The notes under the pieces: generated by a model
What the model saw: the letters and a program-made list of their open reading frames with translations, nothing else
Databases searched by the model: none
Told to the model about the DNA's origin: nothing
Program-made: the position numbers and the translations under genes
From: Pseudotevenvirus miller
Taxonomy: Duplodnaviria > Heunggongvirae > Uroviricota > Caudoviricetes > Straboviridae
DNA: 64,000 nucleotides
Direction: 5' to 3' (one strand)
Virus record (IMG/VR): IMGVR_UViG_2706796139_000001
Coordinates: 50,895 to 114,894 of that record
Shown: one piece after another, positions 7,978 through 51,320 of the stretch
Layout of the letters: each line of letters starts with the position of its first letter
How positions within the stretch are numbered: the first letter of the stretch is position 1

Positions 7978-7993
7978 ATAGCACTTTTTGTTT

Positions 7994-8071
7994 AAAAAGC
8001 CCCTTGCGTAAGTGAGGGGCTTTTGTTATTGTACACACATCGAAACGAAACAGACAAAAGGAACTACGAAA
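7994..8071 (+). promoter_or_regulatory. PeSL-like cassette: terminator hairpin carrying a -35 (TTGCGT), a -10 (TATTGT) and a conserved leader
   Basis: aaaaagccccTTGCGTaagtgaggggcttttgtTATTGTacacacatcgaaacgaaacagacaaaaggaac...ATG. Unit repeated 10 or more times in the window. Confidence 0.55.
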
Positions 8072-8326
8072 ATGGCTAGAACAATCAAAGATTTCCACGA
8101 TGACCAGATTATTTCTCATGTGATGAATGGTCGTATGATTCTGGTTCAGGATGGTGAAGATACCACTCTGATTGTCGAAAACGTAGTTCACTACAGCAAC
8201 AGCAGTTTAGAAGGCATGTTCAAATGGTTGTTGCGCCAGCACAAAGCAGAGAAAAGCAGTCTCCCAGCACAGTGCAAAGCCCACGCAAAAAACCTGGTTG
8301 TCGTTACTAAAATGAGAATGCGTTAA
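8072..8326 (+). CDS. hypothetical protein (84 aa)
   Basis: ATG 8072 downstream of the conserved leader. The listed 8012 ORF is an upstream extension through the promoter. Confidence 0.5.
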   Translation: MARTIKDFHDDQIISHVMNGRMILVQDGEDTTLIVENVVHYSNSSLEGMFKWLLRQHKAEKSSLPAQCKAHAKNLVVVTKMRMR

Positions 8327-8418
8327 AAATTGCCCCTTCGGGGGCAAATAATAGTTGCATTAAATCCTGGTTGTGATACATTACACACATCGAAACGAAA
8401 CAGAGAAAGGAACATACC
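8326..8418 (+). promoter_or_regulatory. PeSL-like cassette (hairpin, early promoter, conserved leader)
   Basis: ttgccccttcgggggcaa hairpin, then ...cattacacacatcgaaacgaaacagagaaaggaacataccATG. Confidence 0.5.
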
Positions 8419-8688
8419 ATGAACATCGATAAAGAACTCGAAGGAAAAGTAATCAACCTGGCAGACCGTGCGCGTTTTGAAAAGCTGGCTAATGGTGGTG
8501 AATCTCTGGGTGATGCAGTAGCATTATTCGAAAGACTTCGTGTTAAACGTGTTGTAGATGGCTGGGTTATTGCTCTCCCTGTCGCAGATGAAGACAAAGC
8601 GGTATATGACCCAGTTGCCGATTCATGGGATATCGCAATCTGTCTGGTTAACATTGAAGTAGAACTTTGCTTCGAGGAAGAAAAATAA
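8419..8688 (+). CDS. hypothetical protein (89 aa)
   Basis: ORF behind a PeSL leader. Confidence 0.5.
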   Translation: MNIDKELEGKVINLADRARFEKLANGGESLGDAVALFERLRVKRVVDGWVIALPVADEDKAVYDPVADSWDIAICLVNIEVELCFEEEK

Positions 8689-45054: not shown

Positions 45055-45333
45055 TTATGACATTTTCTTAGCGATTTTCCAGGCGGCTTTGAACGCCGGA
45101 ACATCTTCAATATCAACCCAGAAACCAGAACCGAAACCATCATTGTAGCAAGGGCAACCGTCGCAGTAGTTTTCCCAGGTCATCACTTTACCACCAACAG
45201 AAGCACCAGTTTCCATCGCACGTAATGCATCTTCAACCTTTTCCAGTTTTTCTGCGTTGTCGTCATAAATGATGAAGTACCATTTGCCGTTGTATTCGTT
45301 ACCAAGTTTGATTGCTTCGCGAACAAGTTTCAT
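45055..45333 (-). CDS. hypothetical protein (about 92 aa)
   Basis: Starts MKLVREAIKLGNEY behind a PeSL leader. The listed 119 aa ORF reads through the promoter cassette. Confidence 0.45.
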   Translation of the reverse strand: MKLVREAIKLGNEYNGKWYFIIYDDNAEKLEKVEDALRAMETGASVGGKVMTWENYCDGCPCYNDGFGSGFWVDIEDVPAFKAAWKIAKKMS

Positions 45334-45424
45334 GATGATTTCCTTTCTCTGTTTCGTTTCGATGTGTGTAATATAACAAAAGCCCTCACCATAGGCAAGG
45401 GGTTTCTTTAACAAAAAGTGCTAT
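45334..45424 (-). promoter_or_regulatory. PeSL-like cassette (minus strand)
   Basis: Reverse complement: aaagaaaccccTTGCCTatggtgagggcttttgTTATATTacacacatcgaaacgaaacagagaaaggaaatcatcATG. Confidence 0.55.
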
Positions 45425-46027: not shown

Positions 46028-46416
46028 AATTCATATTGTGAGCGAAGGATAGCGTAAAGACTACCGATATGGATTGTATCTACCGGACACTGGAACAGAT
46101 CCCCGCGCATCATGTTAAACTCGATATCGTTACGTTCAACATAGTTACCGATCATCGATGTCCATCCCATCACCAGGTTGTAACCATCTTCCGATAACCC
46201 ATAAGCCAGCTTAACAAGAATGCAACGCTTATCAGCCAGTTCTACGCGCATATGGGTACTGGTATGAGTGACCTTGTTCGGGAATCTGCGAAACATTTTA
46301 GTAAGGAGTTTGGCGGTTTCAATATTGAACGCCAGTTCTTGATCCTTACTGGTCTGGTTATCATGACGACGATCCAGATATTTCTTCATTTTCGGATTCA
46401 GATTCACATGTTGCAT
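46012..46416 (-). CDS. hypothetical protein (134 aa)
   Basis: ORF. Confidence 0.45.
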   Translation of the reverse strand: MQHVNLNPKMKKYLDRRHDNQTSKDQELAFNIETAKLLTKMFRRFPNKVTHTSTHMRVELADKRCILVKLAYGLSEDGYNLVMGWTSMIGNYVERNDIEFNMMRGDLFQCPVDTIHIGSLYAILRSQYELWDMK

Positions 46417-46598
46417 AATATATCCCTCACAGGTTTATAACGTTCTTTTCCAGTGCCGTTGCATGAACTGCATTTTGGCGATCCGTGGTTATCATATCGC
46501 CCAGACCCATTACATGCAACACATTTCCGTAATTTCCAGCCATACACGAACCGCATGTAATAATCGGTTCGTGCTGCCTTGCGTTCGTGGAAGTTCAT
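46404..46598 (-). CDS. zinc-ribbon protein (64 aa)
   Basis: CVACNGSG...CSSCNGTG. Confidence 0.4.
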   Translation of the reverse strand: MNFHERKAARTDYYMRFVYGWKLRKCVACNGSGRYDNHGSPKCSSCNGTGKERYKPVRDILCNM

Positions 46599-46819
46599 CA
46601 GTTTGCTTCTTTGTAAACAGCAACCATCCAGTAACCCATAGATTCAGTGTAGTACACGTCAACCCGTGGCATGTTACGATAAACGTAAGCGGCTTTGTAC
46701 GCTTCCAGTTCAGTTTTCACACCGAAAGAGAACCCAGTGAGATAGCTGGAATATTCCAGGACTTCACAACCAACAACTTTAGACAGACGTTTAGAAGCAA
46801 CCGCGCTTGAAATACCCAT
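46598..46819 (-). CDS. hypothetical protein (73 aa)
   Basis: ORF behind a PeSL leader. Confidence 0.4.
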   Translation of the reverse strand: MGISSAVASKRLSKVVGCEVLEYSSYLTGFSFGVKTELEAYKAAYVYRNMPRVDVYYTESMGYWMVAVYKEAN

Positions 46820-46899
46820 TTTTGAATCCCCTTTCTGTGTTTCGTTTCGATGTGTGTAATATACAAAAAAGCCCCCTGCATTGCAAGAGGCTTTTTGAA
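46820..46899 (-). promoter_or_regulatory. PeSL-like cassette (minus strand)
   Basis: Reverse complement: aaaaagcctctTGCAATgcagggggcttttttgTATATTacacacatcgaaacgaaacacagaaagggg...ATG. Confidence 0.55.
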
Positions 46900-47859
46900 T
46901 TATTTTGGTAATTTTTTGATTAATGCTTGTAAGTCGTTGATTTTAGAAAACAGTTCATCGCTATATCGCATCAATTCCTGTCTGCGTTTTGCAGCCCATG
47001 AAACCAATGTTTTTGCATCATCAACACCATAAGTGTATCCATCAGCGGATAGACGAATGATCGCACGAGAACCGTAGTCAACATTTGCATGTTCGATTAA
47101 AAACTTCACCGCTTCGAGAAGTTCGGAATCTTCCTTACTGACTAGAACACCGTTATCATCAGGAAATTCGTTTTCATCATGAACACTCGCAAAATCAAGG
47201 TCGATATAATCATCCTGATTCACCTGGCGGCGCGTGTTGTCTTCGAGACTTTCAATCTGTGAAACCATAGTTTCTACCGGATCTCTTTCAATTGGTTCTC
47301 TGTCGGTTCCTACTTCTTCCAGGAACATCAACAACCAACCAGGGATCAACGAATCAAAAGAACGCTGAATAGGGCTTGCATGGTCACTACCCAGTATTTT
47401 CAACGCACAACCGTCTTTAGTAGCGGTGTGGATATAAATGACGTTACGGTCACGCATACGGCGGCTACCATGAGAAAGGAAGCGACGTAACGAGGTGTTA
47501 TGTCCATAGCGACTCAGATCCAGATTACACAGAGAATCGATAGCCCCACGGTTAGCAATCCGGTAGCGCTTGAATGTTTCAAATCGCAGATTTTCGGTAG
47601 TTACTGGCTTAAATTCTTCGTAAAGAATATAATATTCTTTCGGAATCTCGCGATGGAGAACTCGCAATTCACCATTTTCCGAAGGAGTGAGCACAGAACG
47701 AACATTACCGTTCGCATCACAATGTACCTGCATGACTTGAGGATAATAGAACCCATTAGCCTTTATGGTGTAGTCGGGTACGCGACTCAGGCGCTTTCTG
47801 TAGTACCATTTACCAGTAACAAACGGGGTTGCAGATCCTGCTAAACTAATTGGTTTCAT
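46900..47859 (-). CDS. hypothetical protein (319 aa) downstream of the DUF262 gene
   Basis: ORF overlapping the DUF262 gene by 4 nt (operon). No confident domain. Contains HCDANGN. Confidence 0.5.
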   Translation of the reverse strand: MKPISLAGSATPFVTGKWYYRKRLSRVPDYTIKANGFYYPQVMQVHCDANGNVRSVLTPSENGELRVLHREIPKEYYILYEEFKPVTTENLRFETFKRYRIANRGAIDSLCNLDLSRYGHNTSLRRFLSHGSRRMRDRNVIYIHTATKDGCALKILGSDHASPIQRSFDSLIPGWLLMFLEEVGTDREPIERDPVETMVSQIESLEDNTRRQVNQDDYIDLDFASVHDENEFPDDNGVLVSKEDSELLEAVKFLIEHANVDYGSRAIIRLSADGYTYGVDDAKTLVSWAAKRRQELMRYSDELFSKINDLQALIKKLPK

Positions 47860-48386
47860 TTTGTGGCCTTATACATTTCAATTACGCGTTTCATGTGCTC
47901 TTGTGATTGAGGCACACCAGCGAAGTTCAATTTAATGAAGAATTCAAGACGATCCTTTTTATTACATTCATCCAGCCCCAGGGCAGGTAATGACAGGTTT
48001 TCAAAGGCTCGTTGTTCATGTCGTTGCATATCATCCCAGAACAGACGGGAACCATCCGGCATAGGAATCCCAATCTCACCCTCATAGACTTTGATGATAG
48101 TCGTCAGGCGTTGTTTCCCGTCGATTACTTCTACCCAATGGGATTCGTTGAATTCACTATCAACAGCAATCGCGATAATACCACACGGGAAACCAGTGAT
48201 CAACGTAGTCAGGAATTCATCTTGTTCTTTCTGCGTCCACACATAGGGGCGCTGATAGGATGGATTCAGATCCAGATCTTTGTTTTTCCACCAGTGGATA
48301 TAACTTCCAACCATGATCGCATGTTCGCGACTTCTGAAAGTTATCCGTTCACGAATCCGGTTACGGACTACGATTTCATCAGCCAT
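47856..48386 (-). CDS. DUF262 (ParB/Srx-like, GmrS N-domain-like) protein
   Basis: YQRPYVW and DGKQRLTT (the DGQQR motif). 176 aa. Confidence 0.7.
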   Translation of the reverse strand: MADEIVVRNRIRERITFRSREHAIMVGSYIHWWKNKDLDLNPSYQRPYVWTQKEQDEFLTTLITGFPCGIIAIAVDSEFNESHWVEVIDGKQRLTTIIKVYEGEIGIPMPDGSRLFWDDMQRHEQRAFENLSLPALGLDECNKKDRLEFFIKLNFAGVPQSQEHMKRVIEMYKATK

Positions 48387-48708
48387 GATAAACCACCATC
48401 CAGATCAAACCAGTTACAACAACCGCAACAGTGAAACACATAGCAGCATACACACGCGCATTATGAACCTGCGTTTTCATTTCTGCGATCTCTTGATCCT
48501 TTTCGCTTTCGAATTCGTCGCGGGTTCCGTAGTAGCCAGGATCAGCAGGGGTAGCGATACGCACCGCATCTTTTTCTACAATAGTCGCATAACCATTGTT
48601 TACATTTGTTGCGCCGTACCAATCACCACGATCGTTGTTAATGATCAGGTGTTGCCCCTTTTCATTGTGCTTTGATTCACCAATGACAACTACACGTTTA
48701 CCATTCAT
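48379..48708 (-). CDS. C-terminally membrane-anchored protein (109 aa)
   Basis: C-terminal TM helix AAMCFTVAVVVTGLIWMVVY. Confidence 0.4.
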   Translation of the reverse strand: MNGKRVVVIGESKHNEKGQHLIINNDRGDWYGATNVNNGYATIVEKDAVRIATPADPGYYGTRDEFESEKDQEIAEMKTQVHNARVYAAMCFTVAVVVTGLIWMVVYHG

Positions 48709-48711
48709 AAT

Positions 48712-48969
48712 TTAATCCTTCACATGTTGTAACAGGAATTCTAACAGCTTTCCTTCGGCTTGCATAGCATAAACTTTATTAAGTTTTGCGATGTTTTGAA
48801 AATCAGAGGTTTCTGGATATTCCCAAGCACCATCATCAGAAACAACTGCACCTACTGATATACCAGAAGGATCGCGGGTTAACGCCAGCCCCAGCGGGTG
48901 CAATATTTCTTTGTTGATTTTCCAGATCAGCCCCATATCGGACAGAGTATTGAAATCAACGATTTTCAT
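48712..48969 (-). CDS. hypothetical protein (about 85 aa)
   Basis: Starts MKIVDFNTLSD. Confidence 0.4.
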   Translation of the reverse strand: MKIVDFNTLSDMGLIWKINKEILHPLGLALTRDPSGISVGAVVSDDGAWEYPETSDFQNIAKLNKVYAMQAEGKLLEFLLQHVKD

Positions 48970-48970
48970 G

Positions 48971-49357
48971 TTATGCCTTTGGGACAACACCGAATGCCAG
49001 AAGACCCATACGATGATCGTTATCTGCACCGTCACGGAAGAAGTAGTATTGATTGTCGGAAATATCGGTTACGGTGATACCCTCTTTCAGATACGGCAAC
49101 AGATATAACGGGATCAGCATCAAATCAGATTCACTGCTCCACTTACGGAAACCCAGATTTTTCATTTCTTCCAGTGTCAACTCGTTAGGATCGACGGGAG
49201 AAAAATCAGGTGACCCGATCAGGCGATTAGGAAGGTCGCGAATATGCTTGATTGCGAATTCAGAATCCCACGAACTGTAAGCGATAGGTTCAGCGGCACG
49301 GGTTGCTGTAGCCAGCATAATCATTTGACAGATTTGAAAAGTTGTTGATTTGCTCAT
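48971..49357 (-). CDS. hypothetical protein (128 aa)
   Basis: ORF. Confidence 0.4.
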   Translation of the reverse strand: MSKSTTFQICQMIMLATATRAAEPIAYSSWDSEFAIKHIRDLPNRLIGSPDFSPVDPNELTLEEMKNLGFRKWSSESDLMLIPLYLLPYLKEGITVTDISDNQYYFFRDGADNDHRMGLLAFGVVPKA

Positions 49358-50539: not shown

Positions 50540-51006
50540 GCTTTGACATATTCCACTTTAACAGGTTTGGCGATAAGGTGATCTTTGGTGTAACCTTGTC
50601 CGTCGCAAACATCACAAACGATTTTGAAATCTTCCATTTGGTCGACCCATCCAGAATCAGGCAATCCAGAAGGGTACGTGTTGAAGGTTTTAACACTGTA
50701 TCCTTTTCCATCACACTTAGGGCATTTATACGGGTATTTCGATTTGATCGCACTATACAATTGACCCAGTGTGGTCGAATGATCAAAGTGTATAACAAGT
50801 GCTTCAACGTCAGCAATGCGCAATTCGTTTGGCTTGATCACAGTAAACACATTTGAAGGTATGTTTGGACGCATAATATATTTCTCACTTAAAGAATTTT
50901 TTGATGAAAGAGAGGAACAATCCACCGCCGAACATGATCCAGTATCCCGCGCCGTCACCGTGAAACAGGACGTAAACCGCGACACCATAACAAAAGATTT
51001 CTGCAA
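50536..51006 (-). CDS. protein with two DnaJ-type CxxCxGxG zinc-finger motifs
   Basis: CPKCDGKGY and CDVCDGQGY. Start uncertain. Confidence 0.4.
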   Translation of the reverse strand: MQKSFVMVSRFTSCFTVTARDTGSCSAVDCSSLSSKNSLSEKYIMRPNIPSNVFTVIKPNELRIADVEALVIHFDHSTTLGQLYSAIKSKYPYKCPKCDGKGYSVKTFNTYPSGLPDSGWVDQMEDFKIVCDVCDGQGYTKDHLIAKPVKVEYVKA

Positions 51007-51114: not shown

Positions 51115-51252
51115 TTAGTAATCCCCTACAGGTTGAGAAGATGCAACGCTCAGGATACGGAAAGAGCATTCATTCCACTTGCAATAAGTTTTCGCACAGT
51201 GAACACTACCTTTCATCACAAACCCGTTTGAGAACACCAGCCAGTAAAGTTT
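51115..51252 (-). CDS. small hypothetical protein (about 45 aa)
   Basis: Starts MKLYWLVF behind a PeSL leader. The listed 80 aa ORF reads through the promoter cassette. Confidence 0.3.
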   Translation of the reverse strand, partial: KLYWLVFSNGFVMKGSVHCAKTYCKWNECSFRILSVASSQPVGDY

Positions 51253-51320
51253 CATGATTGTCTCCTTTGTTTCGACACCCCTAATATAACAAAAGCCCCT
51301 GCACGAATGCAAGGGTTTTT
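51253..51320 (-). promoter_or_regulatory. PeSL-like cassette (minus strand)
   Basis: Reverse complement: aaaaacccTTGCATtcgtgcaggggcttttgTTATATTaggggtgtcgaaacaaaggagacaatcATG. Confidence 0.55.

Follow-up and report, generated by a model that had tools for sequence, protein, structure and literature searches.

DUF262 is the common sensor or NTPase module of several anti-phage systems, including GmrSD/BrxU, SspE, Dazbog and Menshen. In these systems it is fused to, or encoded beside, further domains or components, and BrxU dimerises via its DUF262 domains. DndB and DpdB are stand-alone ParB-like proteins that bind nucleoside triphosphate (NTP), lack a nuclease and act with other proteins; DpdB is a DGQHR ParB-like ATPase required for base exchange by DpdA. 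Two-gene GmrS/GmrD systems exist as well (PMC12373910), and NsnA of Menshen has been proposed as a non-nuclease sensor (PMC12065111). Here, we analyzed a stretch of 64,000 nucleotides (nt) from Pseudotevenvirus miller (IMG/VR record IMGVR_UViG_2706796139_000001, positions 50,895 to 114,894; hereafter the window, in which a position equals the record position minus 50894), and within it the phage-borne DUF262 gene gp175 with its overlapping neighbors gp174 and gp176. We find that gp175 is a bare DUF262 domain with a constrained pocket and no detectable nuclease at its side, that its partners are variable and dispensable, and that it occurs autonomously across phage lineages. We favor, with a probability of roughly 0.55, the reading that gp175 is an autonomous, early-expressed, non-essential NTP switch of a 'DGKQR' subfamily, accompanied by a lineage-specific adaptor and probably used in phage-host or phage-phage conflict.

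Positions 46500-49100 of the window match, with 100% identity, the T4-like Citrobacter phage vB_CfrM_CfP1, which belongs to the genus Pseudotevenvirus. The three open reading frames (ORFs) that an initial annotation of the window had placed here on the minus strand are found at those positions and correspond to the annotated coding sequences (CDS) gp174, gp175 and gp176 of the CfP1 GenBank record. gp174 (48379..48708, minus strand) encodes 109 amino acids (aa), gp175 (47856..48386, minus strand) 176 aa, and gp176 (46900..47859, minus strand) 319 aa. The gp174 stop and the gp175 start overlap by 8 nt (48379-48386). A 4-nt ATGA (47856-47859) is shared by gp175 and gp176, in agreement with the translational coupling proposed for this pair. 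Ratios of nonsynonymous to synonymous substitution rates (dN/dS) are 0.04-0.11 for gp175, 0.09-0.53 for gp174 and 0.17-0.47 for gp176, and this purifying selection indicates that all three are real genes.

The assignment of the 176-aa protein to DUF262, made at the outset, is borne out. gp175 scores 73.6 bits against PF03235 (GmrSD_N), above the Pfam cut-off of 33.2 for membership; it contains no other Pfam domain and ends right after the DUF262 domain. phrog_1583 matches it across its full length (3e-59). The AlphaFold2 model of gp175 has a mean predicted local distance difference test score (pLDDT) of 88, and its top Foldseek matches are the cytidine triphosphate (CTP)-binding domains of ParB, Noc, KorB and PadC, with BrxU and SspE ranking lower. 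Entries with a probability of 1.0 include ParB (7bm8), PadC (6ryk), Noc (7ol9) and ParB bound to cytidine diphosphate (6sdk), at TM-scores of just ~0.4-0.47. As judged from this model, gp175 appears to be a member of the ParB/Srx fold superfamily and a complete, minimal DUF262 NTP-binding domain.

A profile built from 100 relatives of gp175 matches BrxU (7p9k) in three blocks, QRxxVW, DG(K/Q)QR and FxxxNxxG. Motif I, YQRPYVW (residues 44-50; 48237..48257, minus strand), aligns with 'QREFVW' of BrxU, and motif III, NFAGVPQSQEH (residues 154-164; 47895..47927, minus strand), aligns with 'FIRMNSGGTTLS' of the same protein. Motif II (residues 89-93; 48108..48122, minus strand), which lines up with 'DGQQR' of BrxU and SspE, had been reported as DGQQR. 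It is intact and its residues are conserved, as claimed, but the codons read from the sequence spell DGKQR, with K where DGQQR has its first Q. R93 aligns with the DGQQR arginine that is mutated in the deposited SspE-R100A structure. DGKQR is unchanged in 20 of 20 close homologues; in 100 distant ones, Q92 is invariant and the other four residues are conserved in at least 90%. Likewise, Y44, Q45, R46, V49 and W50 of motif I, E86, F150, and N154, G157 and H164 of motif III show no variation in the close homologues and are conserved in at least 90% of the distant ones. Because these motif residues are kept, the gp175 domain looks functional.

Comparison with the described systems shows what gp175 shares with them and where it stops. 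Like the GmrSD/BrxU type IV enzymes, it has the PF03235 N-terminal domain, the QRxxVW, DGxQR and FxxxNxxG motifs and the ParB/Srx fold. However, a DUF1524 or His-Me nuclease was detected neither in gp175 nor in the adjacent genes, the BrxU insert between motifs II and III (approximately residues 123-218) is much shorter in gp175, motif II carries the K substitution, and gp175 is phage-borne and lies in an early-promoter region. The best PADLOC match to gp175 is NsnA of Menshen (57 bits, 4e-16, residues 18-175), but the match covers positions 45-205 of a 385-position profile, and gp175 stops where the ParBDB DNA-binding domain of NsnA would start. No NsnB or NsnC lies beside gp175, and PADLOC returns no match for gp174 or gp176, so the locus does not qualify as a Menshen system. 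The PADLOC family PD-T4-2_A is matched as well (3e-12); for gp174 and gp176, PADLOC gives nothing at E up to 1, and neither fits the second-gene model of Dazbog (DzbAB) or PD-T4-2. The ParB-family CTP switches, to which ParB, Noc, KorB and PadC belong, use a small nucleotide-binding domain as a dimerisation switch without a nuclease, and PadC offers a precedent for a ParB-like adaptor. In contrast to them, gp175 (8-16% identity) lacks both a helix-turn-helix DNA-binding domain and a parS-type partner. Compared with DndB and DpdB, it has DGKQR rather than DGQHR, no dnd or dpd genes are nearby, and no NCBIfam family, these two included, is matched at E up to 1; gp175 is thus a member of neither.

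A further proposal of the initial annotation was that gp175 and gp176 form a split GmrSD-like nuclease, and here the data point elsewhere. In keeping with its earlier description as a protein of unknown fold, gp176 has no family match in Pfam (E up to 1), PADLOC (E up to 1), NCBIfam or PDB sequences. When 29 members of the partner family were scanned singly against Pfam (E up to 1), no DUF1524, HNH, PD-(D/E)xK or other nuclease family was found. Fold searches with the gp176 model (pLDDT 64, built from five long-form sequence clusters) gave no nuclease fold, and BFVD returned just uncharacterised phage proteins. The N-terminal domain (residues 1-186; 47302..47859, minus strand) is predicted to be beta-rich (approximately residues 10-185 in the model) and is basic (isoelectric point (pI) 9.5, net charge +8); it is confined to the long form of the partner, found in the CfP1/Miller group and Slopekvirus. 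It is followed by an acidic linker (residues 187-235; 47155..47301, minus strand; pI 4.05, net charge -12) that is predicted to be disordered, with pLDDT below 50 over residues 187-234 and a varying length that includes an 11-residue insertion relative to its relatives. The C-terminal domain (residues 236-319; 46900..47154, minus strand) is modeled as a helix, a loop and a long helix. The phrog_15764 match is limited to residues 235-319, and the C-domain is 37% identical to RB16p167 (BLASTP, 1e-14). In 29 sequences of this domain, D244, L247, A250, K252, G263, G274, Y275 and Y277 are invariant, and no His-Me, histidine, metal-binding or other catalytic motif is visible among the conserved residues. 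One KP15-like homologue of gp176 is labeled 'mRNA metabolism modulator' in GenBank, a label that found no support in any search.

Two observations had been named in advance as counting against a split nuclease, a clearly unrelated fold of the partner and a lack of conservation of the DUF262 motif residues. As far as prediction allows, the former is what we see, with no nuclease fold in the partner; the latter is not, since the residues are conserved. Because the nuclease is missing, gp175 and gp176 do not appear to constitute GmrSD-type restriction, either fused or split.

The distribution of the three genes within Pseudotevenvirus and Slopekvirus was then compared. Homologues of gp174, gp175 and gp176 travel together, in 173, 173 and 172 phage records, respectively; the count for gp174 equals the number of records with a DUF262 protein at least 60% identical to gp175. 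The overlapping stop and start codons are retained in RB16, UPEC03, KP15 and GAP161. The partner exists in a long form of 304-319 aa and a short form of ~100 aa, which have just the ~85-aa C-domain in common. The short form, consisting of the C-domain alone, is found in RB16, RB43, GAP161 and UPEC03 and in most Pseudotevenvirus genomes, and the C-domain invariably lies directly after DUF262. CfP1 gp175 is 97% identical to the RB16 protein. Between these two phages, the synonymous substitution rate (dS) is 0.21 for gp174, 0.34 for the DUF262 gene and 3.46 for the partner C-domain, and the jump from 0.34 to 3.46 argues for a recombination boundary at the ATGA junction (47856-47859). Even inside this clade, the partner behaves as a swappable module.

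Natural losses are also seen. In Klebsiella phage Earwig_ER32 (PP738774; locus L010, 2492-2754), the ~300-aa partner has been cut to a 53-aa stub, and intact homologues of gp174 and gp175 are retained. Klebsiella phage vB_KM5a1-KLB1 (PP444686; locus L098, 2501-2849) carries a natural deletion of ~5 kb in which the gp174 homologue is cut after codon 44; lost with the rest of it are the DUF262 gene, its partner and all further genes up to the 3' end of a radical-SAM gene, to which the remaining 44 codons are now joined. This deletion indicates that the gp174-gp176 block is dispensable. Outside these phages, a DUF262 protein 88% identical to gp175 is encoded on a 178,077-bp contig of the marine flavobacterium Flagellimonas marina (class Flavobacteriia; NZ_JBHSCL010000010.1), which is probably phage contamination of the assembly.

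gp174 consists of a soluble N-terminal part followed by a single predicted C-terminal transmembrane helix, as had been proposed for the gene upstream of gp175. Its one hydrophobic segment spans residues 88-106 (mean Kyte-Doolittle value 2.38) and leaves three residues behind it, and gp174 is therefore expected to be tail-anchored. The protein belongs to phrog_7472, a family of unknown function.

DUF262 homologues with 35-47% identity are found in RB49 (Krischvirus), the lambdoid phage ST64B and Mydovirus NDO71, and their neighbors have no similarity to gp174 or gp176. In RB49 (locus L004, 1406-2971), the DUF262 gene is the third of a tight operon, whose first two genes encode a protein annotated as a DNA methyltransferase and a zinc-ribbon protein. 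The DUF262 gene of NDO71 overlaps by 4 nt with the gene downstream of it, which is unrelated and encodes 105 aa, and in ST64B and enterobacterial prophages DUF262 adjoins an Ea22-like gene. T4-like carriers are of the RB43/RB16, KP15 and RB49 types. Among the matches listed, the Escherichia and Shigella phages are all of the RB16/RB43 type or RB49-like with ~40% identity, and 54 Escherichia records match in total. The sensor and nuclease co-inheritance of GmrSD is not what these genomes display: the partner form is swapped within the clade, stubbed in Earwig_ER32 and absent in RB49, ST64B and NDO71.

A broader survey of 80 loci on IMG/VR viral contigs, spanning 21 DUF262 clades, revealed no genuine neighbor family shared beyond the two clades to which the RB43-, RB16- and KP15-type genomes belong. 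Those neighbor clusters that do span four clades consist solely of ORFs that lie antisense to the DUF262 gene and overlap it. An exhaustive profile search matched 17,542 proteins of the library, including 6,120 at less than 1e-10. The top 150 of these 17,542 matches all measure 130-370 aa and are either stand-alone or carry a C-terminal DUF262 behind a 60-170-aa extension; when 100 distant relatives were scanned with Pfam, all matched PF03235 and no other Pfam domain. Since its neighbors are unrelated across lineages and its relatives are short and single-domain, DUF262 is, on this comparative evidence, apparently an autonomous, mobile unit. A hidden common partner domain was considered and rejected: hhalign comparison of four regions (the extensions at the N-terminus of fused homologues, the 105-aa gene of Mydovirus, and the N- and C-domains of gp176) gave probabilities below 1% throughout. 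A basic, nucleic-acid-binding extension as a general trait of the fused homologues is ruled out by their median pI of 6.4. On large metagenomic viral contigs (L143, 3671-5040; L157, 520-5803), a fused mini-DUF262 of ~266 aa lies among tyrosine-recombinase genes and a RadC-like JAB gene, and one metagenomic locus has tandem DUF262 genes of 269 aa and 179 aa.

Several carriers encode DNA methyltransferases of their own, including CfP1 (gp030) and RB49, where RB49p189 lies in the DUF262 operon. RB49p189 has an FPPC...ENP pattern and matches no Pfam or NCBIfam family; in NDO71, a methyltransferase lies ~1.5 kb upstream of DUF262. All KP15-like phages have Dam and Dcm (PMC5219037). A conserved link between DUF262 and a methyltransferase was examined and dismissed: RB49p189, NDO71 orf142 and CfP1 gp030 show no relationship to one another, and the window contains none of them. 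A link to the restriction-enzyme resistance of KP27 was dismissed too, as the sensitive KP15 has the same genes (PMC5219037). In one Krischvirus, SAP, glucosylated cytosine derivatives without a known pathway were described in 2026, and its 99.96%-identical sibling TB34 is reported to have none (PMC13390438).

The transcriptional setting was assessed from promoter- and terminator-like elements. A hairpin terminator with a 14-base-pair stem and a T run (46866..46896, minus strand), also present in the GenBank record, closes the transcription unit at the gp176 end and overlaps the -35 element of the next sigma70-like early promoter. Copies of an ~85-nt cassette are found at 46815-46900, 45327-45412 and 51235-51320 (minus strand) and at 7990-8075 and 8340-8425 (plus strand). 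Alignment of these five copies reveals a GC-rich hairpin overlapping a TTGC -35 element, a TATATT -10 element, a conserved leader ACACACATCGAAACGAAACAGAGAAAGG and then ATG. Early-promoter/stem-loop (PeSL) elements mark the non-essential hyperplastic regions of RB49 and phi1, where PeSL cassettes mediate modular gene shuffling, and PeSL-like elements occur in RB43 (PMC2839356). With predicted flanking cassettes and the natural KLB1 deletion, the gp174-gp176 region appears to be a hyperplastic region of this type. Because they are bracketed by PeSL-like promoter/terminator cassettes, gp174-gp176 are probably expressed early, as the last genes of a putative early transcription unit running from ~51290 to 46866.

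In the reading that we favor, the QR, DGKQR and NxxG motifs of gp175 would make up a pocket that binds NTP, and NTP binding or hydrolysis would act as a conformational or dimerisation switch, by analogy with ParB-family and other DUF262 proteins. gp175 itself would have no nuclease and would not cleave DNA. gp176 would be a lineage-specific adaptor co-translated with gp175. Its ~85-aa C-domain may dock on the DUF262 domain, because ATGA co-translation is kept in every examined genome of the clade, and the basic, beta-rich N-domain would be an optional add-on, possibly one that binds nucleic acid. The tail-anchored gp174 may position the gp175/gp176 pair at the inner membrane. Because the cassette is dispensable and mobile between unrelated phage lineages and its partner evolves fast, its use is most likely in conflict, through counter-defence or exclusion, rather than in core DNA metabolism.

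Several points weigh against this reading. The conflict role is a class-level deduction from genomic behavior that names no target, and the case for NTP binding, for dimerisation and for any contact of gp175 with gp174 or gp176 draws solely on homology and gene overlap. Likewise, early timing is deduced from promoter-like cassettes. The mildly acidic character of the mini-DUF262 proteins (median pI 5.8) makes direct DNA binding by gp175 alone doubtful, and without a partner it would probably not serve as a general DNA binder. gp176 may still have a novel nuclease fold, given the moderate confidence of its model, and no work on DUF262 proteins that stand alone in phages came up in our literature search.

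Other explanations of the locus were weighed against the same evidence. A specific version of the conflict role would make gp175 a decoy or dominant-negative protein, its bare DUF262 pairing with, or competing for the ligand of, host GmrSD/BrxU, SspE, DzbA or NsnA and blocking their activation. gp175 indeed consists solely of the DUF262 domain, its closest PADLOC entries are NsnA, a defence sensor, and PD-T4-2_A, its gene is dispensable, is located among early promoters and has moved from one phage lineage to another, and its carriers encode DNA methyltransferases whose product, methylated DNA, is a substrate of type IV enzymes such as BrxU. However, among host DUF262 proteins of solved structure BrxU comes closest, with 44 bits confined to the motif blocks, and identity this low does not suggest specific heterodimerisation. 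A passive decoy would also not need strict conservation of pocket residues across very distant relatives, the same family is present in many metagenomic contigs of unknown host, and no experimental precedent was found in the literature; we consider a decoy possible but rather unlikely. We give hardly any credence to the split GmrSD-like system, in which gp175 would sense modified DNA and gp176 would be the nuclease, the pair destroying co-infecting glucosyl-hydroxymethylcytosine phages. Such a weapon would be affordable for carriers of the RB49 and RB43/RB16 types, from which gene 42 and the genes associated with it are missing (PMC2993671); gp175 has intact DUF262 motifs, two-gene GmrS/GmrD systems are known (PMC12373910), and the basic gp176 N-domain might bind nucleic acid. 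Nevertheless, neither gp176 nor 28 relatives give any nuclease signal, the sole conserved part of the partner is an 85-aa helical domain without histidine or metal-binding motif, and in most Pseudotevenvirus genomes the partner is just that ~100-aa domain. Moreover, Earwig_ER32 lost the partner and kept DUF262, and the other lineages have no partner homologue at all.

Genomic context could instead suggest, by analogy with DpdB, a helper NTPase that loads or activates a DNA-modifying or DNA-processing enzyme of the phage. The RB49 operon, in which DUF262 follows the methyltransferase and the zinc-ribbon protein, the NDO71 methyltransferase, a radical-SAM gene ~3.5 kb downstream in CfP1, and the unexplained cytosine modification of one Krischvirus (PMC13390438) are all compatible with such a role. 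It is nonetheless improbable: gp175 matches neither the DndB nor the DpdB family in NCBIfam, the methyltransferases found close to DUF262 are unrelated to one another and absent from this window, KP15 and KP27 both have the gene yet differ in restriction-enzyme resistance, and the cassette is dispensable and has no conserved enzymatic neighbor. A role in membrane-tethered superinfection exclusion, with gp174 holding gp175 and gp176 at the inner membrane to act on the incoming DNA of a second phage, appears highly improbable, since RB49, ST64B and NDO71 have no gp174 beside DUF262, their upstream genes encode no hydrophobic segment, and the trio contains no effector. What speaks for it is the tail anchor of gp174, the 8-nt overlap with gp175 and the strict co-distribution of the two genes in 173 records.

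The PF03235 domain of gp175 is known, and the family of short proteins to which gp175 belongs is widespread and uncharacterised; what is new here is a minimal, effector-less DUF262. In the systems compared above the domain comes with other components, whereas in phages it is alone with its pocket conserved, and this bare form has reached T4-like, Vequintavirinae and lambdoid lineages. Study of the bare domain would reveal what DUF262 itself contributes in ligand, dimerisation and recognition, and might expose a counter-defence or exclusion function. A wider claim would be that the mini-DUF262 proteins with DGKQR form a large class of autonomous phage NTP switches that has gone unrecognised and that neutralises modification-dependent or DUF262-based host immunity (type IV GmrSD/BrxU, SspE, Dazbog and Menshen) by sensor mimicry, with fast-evolving gp176-like adaptors and the membrane anchor gp174 tuning target or location. 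This is distinctly unlikely; if true, it would be the first counter-defence made from the defence's own sensor module. GenBank lists these genes of phages under 'hypothetical', 'DUF262 domain-containing' or 'DefenseFinder protein', and there is a lesson in this for annotation: a 'DUF262' or 'DefenseFinder protein' label on such a gene is not evidence for a restriction enzyme.

Two further genes flank the trio. gp173 (48712-48969, minus strand), directly upstream of gp174, contains DUF7415 (PF24187, 1.5e-8), and a counterpart with 53% identity is kept beside the KP15 trio. On the other side, a 64-aa ORF at 46404-46598 (minus strand) has a CxxCxGxG zinc-finger pattern (DnaJ central domain, E 3e-4; phrog_12902); at this site GenBank instead lists a shorter CDS of 38 aa, gp178 (window 46427-46543).

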